Shown here: positions 15,499-48,456 of the stretch, piece after piece | Numbering within the stretch: the stretch's first letter is position 1 | How the letters are laid out: the number at the start of each line of letters is the position of its first letter | DNA from: Oscillospiraceae bacterium | Lineage (GTDB): Bacteria > Bacillota > Clostridia > Oscillospirales > Acutalibacteraceae | Assembly (NCBI GenBank): GCA_902797875.1 | Contig: CADBUL010000010.1 | Coordinates: forward strand, 1-59,261 | Length of the DNA: 59,261 nt | Direction of reading: 5' to 3' | Notes under the pieces: model-generated | Told to the model about the DNA's origin: nothing | What the model saw: only the letters and a program-made list of their open reading frames with translations | Databases searched by the model: none | Position numbers and translations under genes: made by a program

Positions 15499-15951
15499 TT
15501 ACTCTTTGGCAGGGTCGGTTTGAATTTCCACCGATTCGTTTTGTTTTATGCACGAGAAAACTATTTGTGTTTCGGTGTTGCCGAAGTTTTGCAGCTTGCC
15601 GATAAACCCGTCGAGTTCTTCGGTTGAGGGGAACGCCACTTTAAGCAGCATCGAATAATGACCAGTTACGCAGTTGCACTCAATAACGTTGGGACAAACC
15701 TTTACGAAGGGGTAAAACTCTTCTTTTTGGCGCGGCTGCATTTCAAGATTTATAAACGCCACCACAGGATAACCAAGTTTCTTGTGGTCGAGTTTTACGC
15801 CGTAGCCGGTAATTATTCCGTCCTTTTCTAACCGTTCAAGCCGCGCGGCGGTAGCCGGCGAAGACAAAAAGACGCTCGCCGCAAGTTCTTTAAGCGATAC
15901 GCGGGCGTTTTGATGCAGTTTAGACAGTATAAGTTTATCGGTTTTATCCAT
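15499..15951 (-). CDS. Lrp/AsnC family transcriptional regulator
   Basis: 150 aa. An N-terminal HTH (DKTDKLILSKLHQNARVSLKELAASVFLSSPATAARLERLEKDGII) is followed by an AsnC-type ligand domain. Confidence 0.9.
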   Translation of the reverse strand: MDKTDKLILSKLHQNARVSLKELAASVFLSSPATAARLERLEKDGIITGYGVKLDHKKLGYPVVAFINLEMQPRQKEEFYPFVKVCPNVIECNCVTGHYSMLLKVAFPSTEELDGFIGKLQNFGNTETQIVFSCIKQNESVEIQTDPAKE

Positions 15952-16006: not shown

Positions 16007-17359
16007 TTAGTTGCGTGAATTATAATACTCGTTTTGCTTTTGAATAATAAGCTCGTCGATTTGTTTTATACGGGCTTCAATCGAAGAAATCTGCGCTTCG
16101 TAAGATTGGTCTTGATTTTCATTTTGTTTGCTGTAATCCTTGACCCTGTAAATTTCTGCCGAAGCGGTTGTAACGGCAACCTCGTCGCCCTTTTTCTGCG
16201 CGTCAAAAACGGCCAGCATTCTTCCGAAGGTGACGTCGATATATACCGCGCCGGCGGTTTCGTTGCTTACAATACAGCCAAGATTTTTTCCCTCTTCATT
16301 ATAGCTTAAGAATATTGCCTTGGTTGTGCTGTCGTTGTAAGGCAGAGCGGTCACGTAAATAAGGTCGCGGTCGGGCATATCGTTATTAGGCGAGCAGAAC
16401 ACCAGCGATATCTTCTTTTCTTCGATTTTGTCGCAAAGAGTATCGGTTAAGCGGGCGTTACGCGCATAAACCGCCTTGGGTATGCCAAGCCCGACCGATA
16501 TACACTTGTTGTAAACGCTTTTGAACTCCAGCTCCGAGTCGATAACAATCGCCACGTCCCAGCCGTTCCTTTCAAGGTCGTTTATCTCGTCAATCAAAGC
16601 ATATTTGGAACTGTCGCGAAAATAAGCCGAAGAAAGCGCAATAACGCCGTCGTATTTGTATTGGTCCATTTTGGCGCTCATACTTTCAAGCAAGGAAGAG
16701 GTAGGGTCAACCGCAATTATTATTGCGCGGCCCATTGTTGTTGTATTTTCTTTATACTCTTGTTTAACCTTGGAAAGTTCGCTTTCGTATTTGACTTTTT
16801 CGGCGGTAAGCTGCTCAACCGTTTGGTCGGACTGATATTGTGAACGGTTTTGGTTGTGTTGTTCTTCTGCCTCCATATCATTAAGGGCAATAACAACAAA
16901 CGCCGCGATTATGGCAATAATTATAACTATAGATGCAATAATCGAAAATTTGCGCAGTTTTTTTTCGGTTTGTGGGCTTATGGGTTTTATTTTTTTGTTA
17001 AACAAAGACAAAAAGCGGTATTTACCCGAACGGACAAGTTTTTTAACCCTCGATTTGTTCTTATTAAAGTGTTTTTTGTGGGAACCATGCTTATGTGAGC
17101 CGCTATTGTGTGAGCCGCTATTATGTGAGCCGCTATTGTGCGAGCTGCTATTGTGGGAACCATGATTGTGCGAGCTTGAGTGATGGTGGTGGCTGCCGGA
17201 TTTATGGTGGCTGCTGCGTTTTTTGTTGCCGTCGGTCCGGGCAGTTTCGCCCGCACTTTTTTTGGGGCTGTTTTGCGCTTTTGTTACAGCATCGCCATCG
17301 GAGGCAAAAAAAGATTCCCCGTATTTTTCAATTAGTTCTTGTCTGTCCTGTGAAGGCAT
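16007..17359 (-). CDS. Single-pass membrane protein with cytoplasmic His/Ser-repeat tail, coiled coil and uncharacterised extracytoplasmic domain
   Basis: The N-terminus is HHKSGSHHHHSSSHNHGSHNSSSHNSGSHNSGSHNSGSHKHGSHKKH, followed by a TM helix (FSIIASIVIIIAIIAAFVVIAL). GAAAGG lies 8 nt upstream of the ATG. This is the last gene of the 19166-16007 operon. Confidence 0.65.
   Translation of the reverse strand: MPSQDRQELIEKYGESFFASDGDAVTKAQNSPKKSAGETARTDGNKKRSSHHKSGSHHHHSSSHNHGSHNSSSHNSGSHNSGSHNSGSHKHGSHKKHFNKNKSRVKKLVRSGKYRFLSLFNKKIKPISPQTEKKLRKFSIIASIVIIIAIIAAFVVIALNDMEAEEQHNQNRSQYQSDQTVEQLTAEKVKYESELSKVKQEYKENTTTMGRAIIIAVDPTSSLLESMSAKMDQYKYDGVIALSSAYFRDSSKYALIDEINDLERNGWDVAIVIDSELEFKSVYNKCISVGLGIPKAVYARNARLTDTLCDKIEEKKISLVFCSPNNDMPDRDLIYVTALPYNDSTTKAIFLSYNEEGKNLGCIVSNETAGAVYIDVTFGRMLAVFDAQKKGDEVAVTTASAEIYRVKDYSKQNENQDQSYEAQISSIEARIKQIDELIIQKQNEYYNSRN
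17080..17184. repeat. Tandem 15-bp repeat (about 7 units, 3 near-identical) encoding (S/G)SHN(S/G) pentapeptides
   Basis: The units gtgagccgctattgt (17095), gtgagccgctattat (17110) and gtgagccgctattgt (17125) are followed by degenerate units. Confidence 0.85.
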
Positions 17360-17373
17360 GGTTTTTACCTTTC

Positions 17374-17817
17374 TTATTTATTATTTTTGGGTTTTATAAA
17401 TCTGTTTTTTAGGGCGGCGGCATATGATAAAATTTTTCGCCGCAAATATGTGCGGTCGGCCGCTTTGGCGTATTTTTGACTGTATTCTGCGGTACACTCA
17501 ATAAATTTACCGTTTCGGTAAAAACCGCCGAGCACGCCTATTACATCGCCTGTTTTATACTGAGTTTCGACGGCGGTGCAGTTATCGCCGCGGATAACTA
17601 AATTTTCGCCGTTAATTTTAAGTATTCGGTGCAAAATATAAATATTGTCGCGCCGGTACAAAACTATGTCGCCGGGTTTTAGGGGGGCGTTGGGCTTTAC
17701 GATAAGGGCGCGGTCGGTGTCTTTGTTAAGCATGGGCATCATACTCGTCCCCGAAAAACCGGTAACACAAACGCCGACCTTATCTAACATTTGCTCGATA
17801 TTTTGCGTTTCTATCAT
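17374..17817 (-). CDS. S24/S26-family serine peptidase, SipW/Sec11-like (S26B-type motifs), without TM anchor
   Basis: The motifs are GTSMMPML (SxSMxP box), ILHRIL (HR[IV] box) and IRGDNCTAVE (GDN box). There is no N-terminal hydrophobic segment. Its ATG overlaps the upstream stop (ATGA at 17814-17817). Confidence 0.7.
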   Translation of the reverse strand: MIETQNIEQMLDKVGVCVTGFSGTSMMPMLNKDTDRALIVKPNAPLKPGDIVLYRRDNIYILHRILKINGENLVIRGDNCTAVETQYKTGDVIGVLGGFYRNGKFIECTAEYSQKYAKAADRTYLRRKILSYAAALKNRFIKPKNNK

Positions 17818-18071
17818 TTTTCGATTAGTCCGTTTTCGACTAATTTATCGTAAAACTCCTGCGTATCTTTTAAGGCTTTGTCATAAGATACGTCGTATTT
17901 ATCGCAAAGTATCCCGGCGGCTTCTTCGATGCTTTTACCGTCGGAAAAGGCCTGCCAAACGTCGGCAGAGGTGGCGCTGAGCCGTATAACGCCGTTAAAT
18001 TTACCGGTAATGTCGACCAGCACGTTTACATCGTTAAAATGGCTTAAAACGTAGTTTTTGTTGACCTTCAT
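17814..18071 (-). CDS. PqqD-family / RiPP-recognition-element-like small protein
   Basis: 85 aa. The pattern ...VLVDITGKFNGVIRLSATSADVWQAFSDGKSIEEAAGILCDKYDVSYDKALKDTQEFYDKLVENGLI matches the PqqD layout (beta strands followed by a helical bundle ending in L...GL[IL]). Confidence 0.65.
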   Translation of the reverse strand: MKVNKNYVLSHFNDVNVLVDITGKFNGVIRLSATSADVWQAFSDGKSIEEAAGILCDKYDVSYDKALKDTQEFYDKLVENGLIEK

Positions 18072-18790
18072 TTATTCTCCTCCTGTGTGGGAAATAAACC
18101 GTCGTGCGCTACCTTTACGGCGTTATCGGTGGGGGTGCACTCGAGTATGTAAAAGGGTACCGTCTTGAACATCTTGTCTGCCGCCGCCACGGTTTTGGCG
18201 AAACCGCCGCTTTGCTTTGGTTTGTATATTTGCGAAATTACCTCGCTAAGGTATTTCGAAGGCTGTTCTTTGTTTATTCTGTCGCTCTTTGCGCGGCGCA
18301 AAAGCACTACGGCGTAAAGGGGGGCGCAGACGTTTTTTTGCCAGTTTTCTTTACCGGCATAGGGCGACGACCAAATTTTGGGCGTTTGCCCCGACAGGTC
18401 GATTATGGGTTTGTCGCCGTTAATTATGTCTACCCTGCTCTTGAATACCTTTCGCCACAGTTTTATGTGGGTGCTTTTACCGGTGCCGCTGGGCGCTATA
18501 AAAACTATGCCTTTATTATCGAAGGTGACAGACGCGCCGTGGATTACAAAGCGCGAAAAATCGGGTAATTTTTCGGCTATGCTGCGGTAAAGTGAAATCG
18601 ATTCGGCATAGCCCGCGTCGGCGTTAAGTGAGGTCATATCGGCGGCTATTTGATTATCGTCAGCGGTTGCTGTAATATCGGCTGTTTGCGCAGGCACCAG
18701 GTAGTCTTTACAAAAATCTTTGGAAAACGGGTGTTTGGCGTTCATTTGAACCGTCAGCCCCGCCAAAGAAATATAAAAGCAGTTTTTCAT
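18068..18790 (-). CDS. HPr-kinase C-terminal-domain-like P-loop protein (HprK-related kinase)
   Basis: IHGASVTFDNKGIVFIAPSGTGKSTHIKLW follows the HprK/P pattern HG-x(8-10)-G-x-L-x-G-x-SG-x-GKS. Its stop overlaps the PqqD-like start (ATGA at 18068-18071). Confidence 0.6.
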   Translation of the reverse strand: MKNCFYISLAGLTVQMNAKHPFSKDFCKDYLVPAQTADITATADDNQIAADMTSLNADAGYAESISLYRSIAEKLPDFSRFVIHGASVTFDNKGIVFIAPSGTGKSTHIKLWRKVFKSRVDIINGDKPIIDLSGQTPKIWSSPYAGKENWQKNVCAPLYAVVLLRRAKSDRINKEQPSKYLSEVISQIYKPKQSGGFAKTVAAADKMFKTVPFYILECTPTDNAVKVAHDGLFPTQEENK

Positions 18791-18791
18791 A

Positions 18792-19166
18792 CTAATTAAG
18801 CGGAATTATTGGGAGAGCATTTTCGCCGCTGCCCGTAATAAAGGGCGAGGTTGAACTTTTTGTGCTTTTAGAAGCGGTAGAAGCCGCGTCGGCGCTTTGG
18901 GTTTTGGAACTTGCGGCTTGGGTCGATACGGCGGAGTCAGACGAAGCGCCGTCTTCTTCAAACGGGTCGGCAGGAAGCTCGCCGCGTTCGGTCGCAACAG
19001 AGGTAGTGTTGCCCGTTTTGCTTTGGGTGGTTTGACTTGCGGAATTTGTAGTATTTGAGCCTTCAGACGAGCCGTTAGCGTCTTGGGTGTTATGGCAGGC
19101 GCAAAGCGACAACAAAGCCGCCGCTAAAAGCGATACAAGAATAATTTTAACTGTGTGTTTCATCAT
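18792..19166 (-). CDS. Small Ser/Thr-rich lipoprotein-like protein
   Basis: The signal plus lipobox is MMKHTVKIILVSLLAAALLSLCAC. About 100 aa of S/T/A/Q-rich low-complexity sequence follows, ending SPFITGSGENALPIIPLN. The stop lies 1 nt before the next gene's start. Confidence 0.6.
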   Translation of the reverse strand: MMKHTVKIILVSLLAAALLSLCACHNTQDANGSSEGSNTTNSASQTTQSKTGNTTSVATERGELPADPFEEDGASSDSAVSTQAASSKTQSADAASTASKSTKSSTSPFITGSGENALPIIPLN

Positions 19167-19242
19167 AAAAACCTTCCCAAAAAATAAATAGATTTTTACT
19201 AATATATTGTATCATATTTATTATAACAATGCAACCCGAAAA

Positions 19243-19273
19243 TAAAAAAACCGGGAACCTTGCGGTTCCCGGT
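19243..19273 (-). terminator. Rho-independent terminator of the 1447-aa protein gene
   Basis: The stem is accgggaacc (19250-19259) paired with ggttcccggt (19264-19273), with loop ttgc. A U-tract follows on the minus strand (plus-strand aaaaaaa at 19243-19249). Confidence 0.8.
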
Positions 19274-29686: not shown

Positions 29687-29843
29687 TTTTATCATCCTTT
29701 TACAAATGAAAGTTATTACCGCAAATGCGGTTATCTTATGTATTATAAACCTTATTTTTGCAAAATGCAATTATTTATATTGAGAAATTTTTGATTAAAA
29801 GGTATAATGGGTGTGTAAATATTTCGGAAAGGGGGCTGTCTTT

Positions 29844-31085
29844 ATGAAAATTACCTTTTATACGCTTGGCTGCAAGGTAAATCAGTATGAAAGCCAAAGC
29901 CTTAAAGAAGAACTGTTAAACTGCGGTATAAGTGAAAACGCCCCGGATATAATCGTTATAAATTCCTGCACGGTCACCGCCGAAAGCGACCGTAAAACAA
30001 GACAGACCGTAAACAGGGCAAGAAAAGAGAATCCGAACGCCGTAATTGTGCTTACCGGTTGTATGGCGCAAACCGCCCCGAAAGACGCGGCAAAACTACC
30101 CTGCGATATTGTGCTGGGCAACACCGCAAACCGAAACCTCCCCCTTGCGATATCGAAATTTCTGCAAAGCAAAAACAAGGTTTTTGAGGTTGATAAACAT
30201 ACGGCGGGCGAGGTTTACTCTACCCTTCCCGTTAAAAGCGGGGGCGAGCGCACAAGAGCGTATATGAAAATCGAGGACGGCTGTAACCGCGGCTGCACCT
30301 ATTGTATTATACCCAAAGCGCGAGGCCGCGTACGTTCGCGCGAGCTTTCACAGATTGAACAAGAAGCCAAAGATCTGGCGGCGGCGGGATACAGCGAAAT
30401 TGTCCTTGTGGGCATCAACCTTTCATCTTATGAGTACGGGCTGCAAAACGCCGTAAAGGCGGCGGCGCAGGAGGGTATTAAAAGGGTGCGGCTTGGTTCC
30501 CTTGAACCCGATCTTACCACGCCGCAGCTTGTTAAAGAGCTTGTAAAAATACCGCAGTTTTGCCCCCAGTTTCACCTGGCGTTACAGTCGGGCTGCGATA
30601 AAACCCTAAAGGCCATGAACCGCCTTTATGACACCGAATATTATCTAAACCTTGTAAACCATATTAAAGAAATCTGCCCCGAAGCCCGCTTTACTACCGA
30701 TATTATGGTCGGTTTCAGCGGTGAGAGCAAACAGGATTTTGAGCAAAGCGTAGAGTTTTGTAAAAAGGTTGGTTTTCTTAAAATGCATGTCTTCCCCTAC
30801 TCCGAGCGGCCGGGCACATTTGCCGCTTCTTTTTCAAATAAGGTGCAAAAGAAGGAGAAAGAGCACCGCGCCGCAATAATGCGAGAGGCGGGCGATATTA
30901 TGACCGCCGAAATTTTGAAAACCTATTTAGGCAAGACGGTGCAGGTGCTTGTCGAAAGCGACAGCGGCGGACACACAGCCGATTATGTTTTTGTGCGTTT
31001 GCAAGGCGAAAACCTTGCCGCAGGGCAAATGGTGAACGCTACGGTTACGGGTATTGAAAACGGCGAGTTGATTGCCGAAACATAA
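29844..31085 (+). CDS. mtaB: tRNA (t6A37) methylthiotransferase MtaB-like (MiaB family radical SAM)
   Basis: MKITFYTLGCKVNQYESQ forms the UPF0004 domain, and GCNRGCTYCIIP is the radical SAM cluster. A C-terminal TRAM-like region is present. Confidence 0.88.
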   Translation: MKITFYTLGCKVNQYESQSLKEELLNCGISENAPDIIVINSCTVTAESDRKTRQTVNRARKENPNAVIVLTGCMAQTAPKDAAKLPCDIVLGNTANRNLPLAISKFLQSKNKVFEVDKHTAGEVYSTLPVKSGGERTRAYMKIEDGCNRGCTYCIIPKARGRVRSRELSQIEQEAKDLAAAGYSEIVLVGINLSSYEYGLQNAVKAAAQEGIKRVRLGSLEPDLTTPQLVKELVKIPQFCPQFHLALQSGCDKTLKAMNRLYDTEYYLNLVNHIKEICPEARFTTDIMVGFSGESKQDFEQSVEFCKKVGFLKMHVFPYSERPGTFAASFSNKVQKKEKEHRAAIMREAGDIMTAEILKTYLGKTVQVLVESDSGGHTADYVFVRLQGENLAAGQMVNATVTGIENGELIAET

Positions 31086-47140: not shown

Positions 47141-48307
47141 TTAGTTGCAGATGGTCTTTTCGGTGTCTTTATCGAACAGGTGGATTTTGTTAACGTCGAT
47201 GGCAACCTTGATGGTATCACCCGGACGGGCGGTAGAACTCGGGTCAACCCTGGCGTTAAGGCTTTGGCCTTCGCAGTTGGTGTAAAGATAGGTTTCCGCG
47301 CCCATAAGCTCGGTGACCTCAACCTTGGTTTCGATTATACCCTCTTTATTGGCTTTCATTAAAAGCTCTTCATCGTGAACATGTTCGGGACGAATACCCA
47401 TAACAACGTGTTTGTTAACGTAGGGCTCAAGCAAACCGACCTTGCGCTCGATTTTATCTTCGTTCTTGTAATCGGGAAGCGGAAGCTTATATTTAACGCC
47501 CGCGCGGGTTTTGGTATCTTCGCTGCCGAACTCTACAAAGAATTTTTCGCCCTCTTTAAGAACCACGGCGTCGAGGAAGTTCATTTGAGGTGAACCGATA
47601 AAGCCGGCGACAAACATATTGCAGGGCTTATCGTAAAGTACCTGAGGCGCCGCAACCTGCTGAATAAAGCCGTCCTTCATAACTACGATACGGGTACCCA
47701 TGGTCATAGCTTCGGTCTGGTCGTGGGTAACGTAAATAAAGGTGGTGCCAAGGCGTTGATGAATACGGGTAAGCTCGGTACGCATCTGCGCACGAAGTTT
47801 AGCGTCGAGGTTGGAAAGCGGTTCGTCAAGTAAGAATACCTTAGGCTCGCGAACTATCGCACGGCCAAGGGCTACACGCTGACGCTGACCGCCCGACAAA
47901 GCCTTGGGCTTACGGTCGAGTAAATGCTCGATGTCCAAAATCTTGGCGGCTTCTTCAACGCGGCGTTTAATCTCCTCTTTGCCGACCTTACGGAGTTTAA
48001 GGCCGAACGCCATATTGTCGAACACGGTCATATGCGGATAAAGCGCATAGTTTTGGAACACCATTGCTATGTCGCGGTCTTTAGGTGCAACGTCGTTAAC
48101 AAGACGGTCGCCGATGTAAAGTTCGCCGCTGCTTATTTCTTCAAGGCCGGCAACCATTCTAAGGGTGGTGGACTTACCACAGCCCGAAGGTCCAACGAGT
48201 ATAATAAACTCTTTATCGGCAATTTCAAGACAAAAATCCGAAACTGCGATAAGATCGCCTGCGCCCGGATACTTTTTGTAAATGTTTTTAAGCGTTACGC
48301 TTGCCAT
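47141..48307 (-). CDS. Sugar ABC transporter ATP-binding protein (MsmX/MalK/UgpC type)
   Basis: GPSGCGKST (Walker A), LSGGQRQR and [10 protein letters not shown] are present, with a C-terminal TOBE-like regulatory domain. The start was trimmed to [11 protein letters not shown], which has a GGGGG RBS. Confidence 0.93.
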
Positions 48308-48456
48308 AACAAAAACCCCCATTAAAAATTTTGCACTAACATTTTACCAAATGCAGATAATTAAAACAATACATTATTTACCCAAATATGTAACAATTTT
48401 TTTGTAAAAAATAACTGCTTTTTTTGGTATATTTGTTATTATTTACAAAAATTATT

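Follow-up and report, generated by a model that had tools for sequence, protein, structure and literature searches.

A reduced kinase–RRE–peptidase operon of gut Clostridia as the probable maturation core of a linear polyphosphorylated peptide pathway

Introduction

What is made by an operon that encodes a peptide-recognition protein, a kinase-like protein and a soluble signal-peptidase-like enzyme, with no recognizable precursor peptide nearby? The question is raised by five genes at positions 16007–19166 of contig CADBUL010000010.1 (assembly GCA_902797875.1) from an Oscillospiraceae bacterium; the whole stretch analysed, 59,261 nucleotides, is called the window. A lipoprotein gene is followed by the genes of an ScmC/HprK-like protein (K), a PqqD-type RRE, or recognition element of the pathways for peptides made on ribosomes and modified after translation (RiPPs) (B), a SipW-like peptidase (S) and a membrane protein. 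A first-pass annotation, made from the sequence alone, had viewed the set as an orphan, RiPP-like system and had recognized no described class with this combination of RRE, kinase and S26B peptidase. The claim of novelty fails: Popov et al. (2026, Nat Commun 17:6633; PMC13381572) characterized the LppK-LppB-LppS set of the linear polyphosphorylated peptides (LPPs), and because that set matches, and S and B are homologous by profile comparison to LppS and LppB, a known system with this architecture exists. The RiPP-like reading is strengthened, the trio matching the core of LPP clusters. K, B and S are probably the maturation core of an LPP-type pathway, reduced and re-equipped in the clade of the window, a group of uncultured gut Oscillospiraceae-like Clostridia. 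This reading draws on the homology of S and B, the fold and motifs of K, the co-conservation of the three genes and the purifying selection that acts on them; the enzymatic activities and their order would be those expected by analogy.

The LPPs are a RiPP family defined and tested by Popov et al., whose discovery started from an archaeal-type signal peptidase in atypical lasso loci (PMC13381572). About 126 clusters, mostly from Bacilli, define the family, and the conserved core comprises the SpI-like peptidase LppS, the discrete RRE LppB, the HprK-like LppK, the NTP_transf_5 protein LppN and the MsbA-like exporter LppD; in Paenibacillus alginolyticus DSM5050 the genes are arranged lppA-K-B-S-D-N (PMC13381572). 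The leader of the precursor reads YxxPxVLxHQxIxFETxxS. In B. subtilis LppK adds up to four phosphates on core Ser3, and LppS cuts after T-1, poorly if phosphorylation has not occurred (PMC13381572). Cleavage requires LppB, is abolished in the S29A, H68A and D93A variants of LppS, and is determined in LppA by F-3/T-1; the role of LPPs has not been established (PMC13381572).

Results

Relationship of K, B and S to the LPP enzymes

K shows weak matches in profile libraries to HprK_rel_A, HprK_rel_B and ScmC (TIGR04352/TIGR04355/TIGR04249) and to AAA_29, the models whose hits define the "HprK kinase" group of the LPP study (PMC13381572). Homologues of K are assigned in precomputed annotation to a newer Pfam family, PF27840 "ScmC". 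Across 25 aligned homologues there is an HprK-style block, H-G-A...(A)PSGTGK(S/T)TH, and an invariant N-G-D-K-P motif, and the P-loop of K is intact. Because a profile search of the family against PDB chains gave P-loop matches only, a search by fold was needed. The AlphaFold2 (AF2) model built on the same alignment (pLDDT 92.9, pTM 0.89) finds its best Foldseek matches in the PDB among ATP-dependent phosphoenolpyruvate carboxykinases (PEPCK) and HPr kinase/phosphorylases (HprK/P), with E values of 1e-6 to 1e-5. PEPCK and HprK/P are the two known members of one P-loop fold. The HprK-like character noted at first reading is thus upheld by family models, by the Pfam assignment of homologues and by fold, and K is predicted to be a serine kinase, an LppK-like P-loop protein of the ScmC family with the HprK/PEPCK fold.

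B scores 50.6 bits against PF05402 (PqqD), well above the cut-off of 23.4, in agreement with its initial description as a PqqD/RRE-like protein. The profile of its family aligns with that of the LppB family with an hhalign probability of 98.4% (E = 1e-14); BLASTP of the window protein against LppB gives no alignment, so that the relation is visible by profile comparison only. Because any PqqD RRE would score similarly against the LppB family, B is not placed inside the LppB clade. It is, as judged by profiles, an LppB-like discrete RRE, encoded beside the peptidase gene.

S matches sigpep_I_arch (TIGR02228) with 31.4 bits (E = 1.5e-7), below the cut-off of 51.85, and also lies below the cut-offs of the models for bacterial signal peptidase I (SPase I) and for the maturation protease of nickel superoxide dismutase (NiSOD). 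Among 21 homologues G23, S25, M26, P28, H63, R64, G77, D78 and E84 are invariant, and the family profile aligns the G-x-S-M-x-P box with the catalytic serine in known structures of SPase I. The N-terminus, MIETQNIEQMLDKVGV, contains no hydrophobic segment and no membrane anchor. Against LppS (WP_029196374.1; this sequence and that of LppB were taken from Supplementary Data 1 of PMC13381572) the family profile gives an hhalign probability of 98% (E = 1.7e-13), and BLASTP of S itself gives 25% identity (E = 7e-8). S25, H63 and E84 align to the catalytic S29, H68 and D93 of LppS, the third residue being Glu, not Asp. These matches, the invariant Ser and His and the missing hydrophobic segment bear out the anchor-less SipW/Sec11-style serine peptidase of the first-pass annotation. 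S is predicted to be a soluble, cytoplasmic leader peptidase of the SpI/SipW Ser/His type, resembling LppS.

Conservation of the core in Clostridia

The K family comprises 609 clusters at 90% identity, with at least 538 matching loci in a collection of species-representative genomes; nearly all of the best-matching loci belong to uncultured gut or rumen Clostridia (Oscillospiraceae, Acutalibacteraceae, Lachnospiraceae, Eubacterium). Neighbourhoods were compared in 86 loci, the window and 85 fetched loci with ScmC homologues (designated by L-numbers), through crude ORF calls, clustering and hidden Markov models (HMMs) run against six-frame translations. A PqqD gene lies within 6 kb of the ScmC homologue in 50 of the 86, mostly overlapping or abutting the kinase gene. 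An S26-type peptidase is found in 31, every one of which has PqqD as well; NTP_transf_5 (PF14907) occurs in 21 and the family of the window membrane protein in 9, and fused ABC exporters are frequent. Recurrent arrangements are K-B-S-ABC-NTP5 (L060, L001/L002), K-B-S-NTP5 (L030, L054, L061) and K-B-S-c12 with or without ABC/NTP5 (L045, L073, L074). The order in L060, peptide-K-B-S-ABC-NTP5, is that of lppAKBSDN. The trio is thus co-conserved, which settles a point that the first-pass annotation had raised as capable of overturning its proposal.

Some 18 related loci contain short ORFs of 31–69 aa with a conserved N-terminus, located directly upstream of K or just after neighbouring giant genes; examples of this N-terminus are MKYVEPQIEVTMLDSEDVITTSVVLPDDDWE, METKQYIEPEIEITMFDVEDVITTSDGLGGGGIVLPDDEW and MVYEKPVMEVLRLEEADIIRASGG... 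In these Clostridial precursors the Y and P of Y-x-x-P are invariant and a D-(V/I)-(I/V)-T-x-S junction is nearly so. The leaders read Y-x-E-P-x-h-E-h...D-V-I-T-x-S instead of the YxxPxVLxHQxIxFETxxS of the LPPs. A scan of eight of the precursors against NCBIfam gave no family match, and an HMM of the Bacilli LppA leader detects none of the Clostridial precursors. Both kinds of leader have a common layout, a hydrophobic residue, any residue, Thr and then Ser. ABC exporters, NTP_transf_5 genes and YxxP-leader precursors occupy the same positions in these loci as in LPP clusters. Since the leaders share with LppA only the YxxP stretch and the general layout, the Clostridial branch, whose components and gene order are those of the described family, would be a sister or variant of it. 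No treatment of this branch was found in the literature searched.

Operon structure and selection

The five-gene operon originally proposed stands: all five ORFs lie on the minus strand where they had been placed (Table 1), beginning with an S/T-rich lipoprotein and ending with a His-repeat membrane protein, and every junction was confirmed by reading the sequence. One nucleotide separates the lipoprotein and K genes (TAG-T-ATG, 18790/18792), ATGA overlaps join K to B (18068–18071) and B to S (17814–17817), and a 14-nt spacer containing GAAAGG stands ahead of the ATG of the membrane-protein gene at 17359. The upstream boundary lies beside the gene of a giant secreted protein. Because a strong terminator, followed by a promoter-like site, is interposed between the stop codon of that gene (19295) and the lipoprotein gene, the five genes are assigned to a transcription unit of their own, no continuation of the giant gene.

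Table 1. Features of the operon and its surroundings in the window
Feature	Coordinates	Strand	Basis and remarks
Lipoprotein gene, 124 aa	18792-19166	-	ORF list and sequence reading
K, HprK/PEPCK-fold P-loop protein (predicted), 240 aa	18068-18790	-	ORF, family models, predicted fold
B, PqqD-family RRE, 85 aa	17814-18071	-	ORF, PF05402 match
S, SpI/SipW-type Ser/His peptidase (predicted), 147 aa	17374-17817	-	ORF, profile matches
Single-pass membrane protein, 450 aa	16007-17359	-	ORF, homologues, model
Promoter-like site before lipoprotein gene	19201-19229	-	9/12 consensus matches; prediction from consensus only
Intrinsic terminator of giant gene, upstream operon boundary	19250-19273	-	10-bp hairpin, 7 GC, T-tract
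Giant secreted protein, 1447 aa	19295-23638	-	ORF, domain scan; separate transcript, conserved neighbour
Lrp/AsnC regulator gene	15499-15951	-	Family match; 55 nt downstream of operon, syntenic in close relatives

In the closest relatives, whose kinases are 65–83% identical to that of the window, the order is kept: large secreted protein, lipoprotein of about 120 aa, K, B, S, membrane protein of about 433 aa, Lrp, MgtE. Its recurrence at this level of divergence argues that the arrangement is not due to chance. Ratios of nonsynonymous to synonymous substitution (dN/dS) against these relatives, at dS of 0.5–1.9, are 0.16–0.19 for K, 0.12–0.18 for B, 0.09–0.24 for S, 0.25 for the membrane protein and 0.29–0.47 for the lipoprotein. 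Purifying selection acts on all five genes.

These values bear on the suspicion, which the absence of the A, D and N genes invites, that the operon is a decaying and functionless remnant of a full LPP (or lasso) cluster. Because the same reduced set is found across relatives with dN/dS of 0.09–0.25 at dS of 0.5–1.9, it is maintained rather than decaying; moreover, every ORF is intact, with translational coupling between them, no catalytic or P-loop residue has been lost, and the operon contains no gene for a lasso cyclase or B2 protease. A remnant is extremely improbable.

Missing components and the location of the precursor

A number of observations weigh against the assignment of K, B and S to LPP maturation. 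Three of the six defining LPP genes, lppA, lppD and lppN, are absent locally. HMMs built from the leaders of 15 Clostridial and 11 Bacilli precursors reveal no YxxP precursor in six-frame translations of the 59-kb window, nor any in L086–L090, the short contigs of the closest relatives. Profiles made from related loci (19 of them for NTP_transf_5) likewise detect no NTP_transf_5 protein and no MsbA-like or fused ABC exporter in the 59-kb window, where the sole ABC match is an unrelated 393-aa ABC ATPase (47141–48322). K is linked to LppK by shared family models and fold, not by direct alignment with LppK, and in the window clade B has a Ser where N33 of LppB, which fixes the kink at the leader proline, is located. 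Clostridial and LppA leaders align only over K-x-Y-x-x-P-x-hydrophobic (hhalign E = 0.0025, probability 12%), and the Thr–Ser spacing is T-x-S in the former and T-x-x-S in the latter. Finally, the Clostridial SpI-associated RREs of the LPP study were labelled "others" and their precursors "ND" and were left unanalysed, the analysis being kept to the mostly Bacilli cluster 1 of the sequence similarity network (SSN) (PMC13381572). The few Clostridial SpI/RRE pairs listed in its Supplementary Data 1, in SSN clusters 4 and 9, are from Dehalobacter, Anaerocolumna and an uncultured Ruminococcus (PMC13381572).

The label "orphan" that was first given to the operon fits the window, since precursor, exporter and NTP transferase were not found in its 59 kb. 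On the conservative view of the substrate, the precursor, and perhaps also the exporter, is encoded outside the window. This view is favored because some Bacilli precursors are tabulated as "elsewhere in the genome" (PMC13381572) and because precursors in related Clostridial loci stand after other giant genes. The region between the giant and lipoprotein genes measures 128 nt in the window and is longer in L089 (about 230 nt) and L086 (689 nt; 1154–1842), in neither of which it contains a leader-like ORF.

The change in the RRE can be placed on the crystal structure of LppB with LppA, in which N33 fixes the leader-proline kink, D70 forms a hydrogen bond to the leader Tyr and F74 packs on the proline (PMC13381572). 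The window protein keeps the equivalents of D70 and F74, and S32 (codon 17976–17978, minus strand) stands at the N33 position. The residue is Ser in the window, L086, L088 and L090. Because it is Asn in at least 90% of the broader RRE alignment (20 sequences), the change from Asn to Ser is specific to the clade that has no nearby YxxP precursor.

The lipoprotein and its tail

The lipoprotein gene occupies the position held by lppA in LPP clusters. Its product has a signal peptide with the sequence LSLCAC, an S/T-rich body, an internal ELPADPFEED and the C-terminal tail SPFITGSGENALPIIPLN. The tail, SPF(I/V)TGSG.N.LPIIPL(N/K), is kept in the close relatives L086, L088 and L089 while the body diverges; an LPIIPL(N/K) end persists in L090 (LPIIPLN), and L079 has TPIIPLK. 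Elsewhere the genes directly upstream of K often encode lipoproteins or larger secreted proteins with similar tails, such as ...NDWGLGPVPLG, ...SWELGGVPLG and ...NYGMGFIPL. A simple tail pattern is found in 6 of 56 proteins encoded directly upstream of ScmC homologues and in 1 of 1442 other ORFs, a count that shows enrichment and is no proper test because the pattern was chosen post hoc.

End motifs of this kind also occur in precursor peptides. The internal (G/Y)ELP(A/L)DxFE(E/D)D of the window-clade lipoproteins matches the C-terminal (E/V)LP(E/D)D(E/D)(F/W) of the precursors of L006, L030 and L054; an ELPxDx(F/W)-type pattern, again defined post hoc, occurs 10 times in 2.05 million six-frame residues, 8 of these being the sequences in question. 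The L051 precursor (L051 1–138) ends ...GGGGVPLG and the L036 and L047 lipoproteins ...ELGGVPLG, and the L036 and L047 precursors contain ...EEW(D/E)GPI(I/L)... Within single loci, C-terminal tails are common to precursor peptides and to adjacent exported proteins or lipoproteins (L036 8151–9960, L047 8578–9966), and at L072 8531–9937 both the precursor and an adjacent secreted protein end in GWSDWWTPE(F/Y).

Could the lipoprotein itself be the substrate, a "protein-borne" LPP? It would then be phosphorylated before export on Ser within F-I-T-G-S-G, cut at FIT|GS, or both; alternatively, the altered pocket of the RRE would bind the LPIIPL tail or the ELPADPF motif. The gene lies in the lppA position and is coupled to K by the 1-nt spacer, the tail is conserved while the body drifts, and F-I-T|G-S resembles both the F-3/T-1 of LppA with its nearby Ser and the Clostridial D-V-I-T-x-S junction. 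At other loci the precursor cores again show the ELPxDxF motif and a hydrophobic Pro tail, and the Asn-to-Ser change in the RRE is specific to the clade that lacks a precursor. The lipoprotein, however, contains no YxxP motif, and because it carries a Sec/lipoprotein signal and K, B and S have none, any action of these three proteins on it would have to precede its export; for a released 13-mer there would be no exporter. Neither L090 nor L079 has FITGS, and all the motif matches were found post hoc. Ordinary YxxP precursors occur alongside tail-bearing lipoproteins in L026, L036, L045 and L047, which argues that there the lipoprotein is an accessory and not a replacement. The lipoprotein is thus an unlikely substrate, and a precursor encoded elsewhere is the likelier of the two candidates.

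The giant surface protein

The neighbouring giant protein has three N-terminal repeats of about 210 aa, CBM_4_9 and Flg_new_2 domains, and three C-x3-G-x(n)-C-x2-C ("ATCTxxG...CxxCG") repeats. A C-terminal domain of about 300 aa is also present in proteins encoded beside the ScmC/PqqD cassettes of L030, L045, L054 and L072, and orthologues precede the cassette in L086, L088, L089 and L090. Of 83 loci, 35 have an ORF of at least 700 aa no more than 8 kb from ScmC, and 18 have Cys-repeat proteins.

This company suggests a further interpretation, that the operon serves specifically to process or anchor the giant surface protein, with the lipoprotein as tether and K, B and S modifying a partner. 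It would account for a neighbour conserved in close relatives, for the frequency of large ORFs and Cys-repeat proteins near ScmC, and for the ...GWSDWWTPE(Y/F) tail that the L072 secreted protein shares with the precursor next to it. Yet the terminator and separate promoter-like site divide the giant gene from the operon, the giant protein of the window has neither the tail motif nor a YxxP leader, and it is exported by Sec while K, B and S are cytoplasmic. Many ScmC loci, moreover, have no large protein nearby. Such a role for the operon is very unlikely.

The membrane protein

The last gene encodes a protein with an N-terminal His/Ser-rich tail, a transmembrane segment (about 16883–16951), a coiled coil, a CE4/NodB-like domain and a second, C-terminal coiled coil. 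The low-complexity stretch SHHKSGSHHHHSSSHNHGSHNSSSHNSGSHNSGSHNSGSHKHGSHKKH, residues ~49–95 (17075–17215, minus strand), is encoded by near-tandem 15-nt units. By the positive-inside rule the His/Ser tail is predicted to be cytoplasmic and the domain to lie outside the cell; the tail may bind metal or serve as a kinase target. Single-pass homologues of about 320 aa, without the His-rich tail, are encoded after the peptidase gene in L045, L059, L063, L073 and L074 and after NTP_transf_5 in L001/L002. The N-terminal extension is confined to the window clade. H/S-rich tails resembling SHHKSGSHHHHSSSHNHGSHNSSSHNSGSHNSGSHNSGSHKHGSHKKH also form the C-termini of ECF_trnsprt-like membrane proteins beside ScmC in L003 and L085.

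Two large protein searches with the membrane protein returned 2–4 relatives, the His-rich region having probably swamped the word index. The AF2 model, from an alignment of 5 sequences, has a pLDDT of 62 overall, and its confident half repeatedly matches CE4/NodB deacetylases (probability 0.9–0.99, rmsd 3.5–4.2 Å); there is in addition a weak profile match to PgaB. No obvious CE4 metal-binding His-His pair was seen in the domain. The protein may tentatively be called CE4-like, possibly non-catalytic, the call being tentative because the five-sequence model is poor.

Flanking genes and other ScmC cassettes

The Lrp/AsnC regulator downstream of the operon corresponds to no known LPP component. 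About 2.4 kb past the operon, beyond the MgtE gene, lies a gene for a 465-aa Transglut_core protein (PF01841; 12195–13592, minus strand). It was considered as a lasso B2 protease and rejected: it belongs to PF01841 and not PF13471, is much larger and lies outside the operon, and it is probably unrelated.

A second kind of cassette runs, in this order, from an ECF_trnsprt-like membrane protein bearing K-rich "KSKY(L/I)R" repeats through ScmC and PqqD to a secreted protein of about 150 aa (L004 6001–7482, L019, L035, L051, L065; also L003, L046, L067, L084, L085). In the secreted protein the signal peptide is followed by "G(N/D)xDTPxxPI", and there are also one Cys repeat and a dockerin-like D-L-D-G-N-G-I-I-N-A-K-D-Y; some loci encode a 930-aa LRR_5/Cys-repeat protein instead. 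S26 peptidase is absent from this variant. In 31 of the 86 loci an ScmC homologue is present with neither PqqD nor peptidase, beside housekeeping-looking genes: a gene for a protein of about 430 aa (with a homologue in the window at 29811–31085), a CapA-like 450-aa gene, a HAD hydrolase, AsnA and PepF. The 430-aa gene precedes ScmC in L008, L014, L016, L021 and L024; further solitary examples are L031, L037, L038, L062, L068, L077, L080, L081 and L083. Either other parts of those genomes encode the partners, or a second role falls to the kinase-like protein.

Discussion

Comparison with known systems

The window and the LPP clusters have in common a kinase of the ScmC/TIGR04249 type, a discrete PqqD RRE and a soluble, SipW-like peptidase with Ser, His and an acidic residue, encoded in the order K-B-S by overlapping genes. 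The window differs in that lppA, lppD and lppN are missing from it, in the extra, conserved LPIIPL-tail lipoprotein and CE4-like membrane protein, and in E84 for D93 in the peptidase and Ser for N33 in the RRE. The neighbours also differ, LPP clusters being associated with capsule loci and the window operon with giant surface proteins.

Other systems share fewer parts. Lasso clusters of the paeninodin type (PadeK kinase, B1 RRE, NTP transferase, ABC exporter) also couple an RRE to an HprK-like kinase, with or without NTP_transf_5, and recognize leaders through YxxP/WxxP. A lasso cluster was nonetheless rejected: as the first-pass annotation had observed, family scans match neither an Asn-synthetase-like macrolactam cyclase nor a B2 (Transglut_core3) transglutaminase-type protease in the operon, whose peptidase is instead a serine enzyme of the SpI type. 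A 592-aa neighbour in some related loci, examined as a possible cyclase, is an M3B oligoendopeptidase (PepF-like), and a 335-aa neighbour is an AsnA-like housekeeping protein.

The SipW/Sec11 ER-type signal peptidases and the NiSOD maturation protease SodX belong with S to the S26 fold family and have the Ser-His pair and GDN box; SodX, too, is a cytoplasmic member of S26, dedicated to a single substrate. S has no anchor and no TasA/TapA or sodN partner, and scores below the curated cut-offs (31.4 against 51.85; 19.4 against 63.25). A housekeeping ER-type signal peptidase (SipW) was rejected for S in view of the missing N-terminal anchor and the low TIGR02228 score. SynChlorMet cassettes (ScmC with radical SAM/SPASM) and the HPr-rel-A system (TIGR04352/TIGR04353) likewise contain an HprK-related P-loop protein alongside one of the PqqD family. 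K is no member of either equivalog, with 13.9 bits against 125 (TIGR04249) and 14.3 against 200 (TIGR04352), far below the cut-offs, and the window has no radical SAM genes. Literature searches on ScmC and SynChlorMet gave nothing relevant.

A proposed reaction sequence

Because of the homology and the conserved catalytic residues, K, B and S probably work as their counterparts do in Paenibacillus. By analogy with that system, the PqqD-like RRE would first bind a peptide substrate. The ScmC/HprK-like protein would then phosphorylate a serine just downstream of the leader, and the cytoplasmic SipW-like peptidase, aided by the RRE, would remove the leader. The window clade would have lost, or would keep elsewhere in the genome, the YxxP-leader precursor, the MsbA-like exporter and NTP_transf_5; it always carries the LPIIPL-tail lipoprotein and the membrane protein with its extracytoplasmic CE4-like domain.

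Implications for LPP-type pathways in gut Clostridia

The end motifs ELPxDxW/F, W-E-G-P-I-h, G-x-V-P-L-G and LPIIPL are found on YxxP RiPP cores, on the C-termini of lipoproteins encoded upstream of K and on some large secreted proteins. With low probability, the LPP machinery of gut Clostridia may be tied to cell-surface architecture and not to a free antimicrobial peptide. In the window clade the handle would have moved wholly onto the Sec-exported lipoprotein, and K-B-S, with its re-tuned RRE, would have been kept to act on that lipoprotein or on a partner. If this were so, the shared end motif would be a common ligand or attachment handle.

The LPP class itself is already known, having been published in 2026; what is new is the reduced and re-equipped form of K-B-S in one clade of gut Clostridia. 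The radiation of the K-B-S core in gut and rumen Clostridia is much larger than in the published, mostly Bacilli, set, and it includes a conserved reduced form that has no local precursor, exporter or NTP transferase. The clade-specific change in the RRE provides a natural test case for the evolution of RRE specificity, a theme of the LPP study (PMC13381572). Together with that change, the shared end motifs and the recurrent neighbours, giant surface proteins, tail-bearing lipoproteins and the CE4-like membrane protein, offer handles on the role that LPP-type peptides play.

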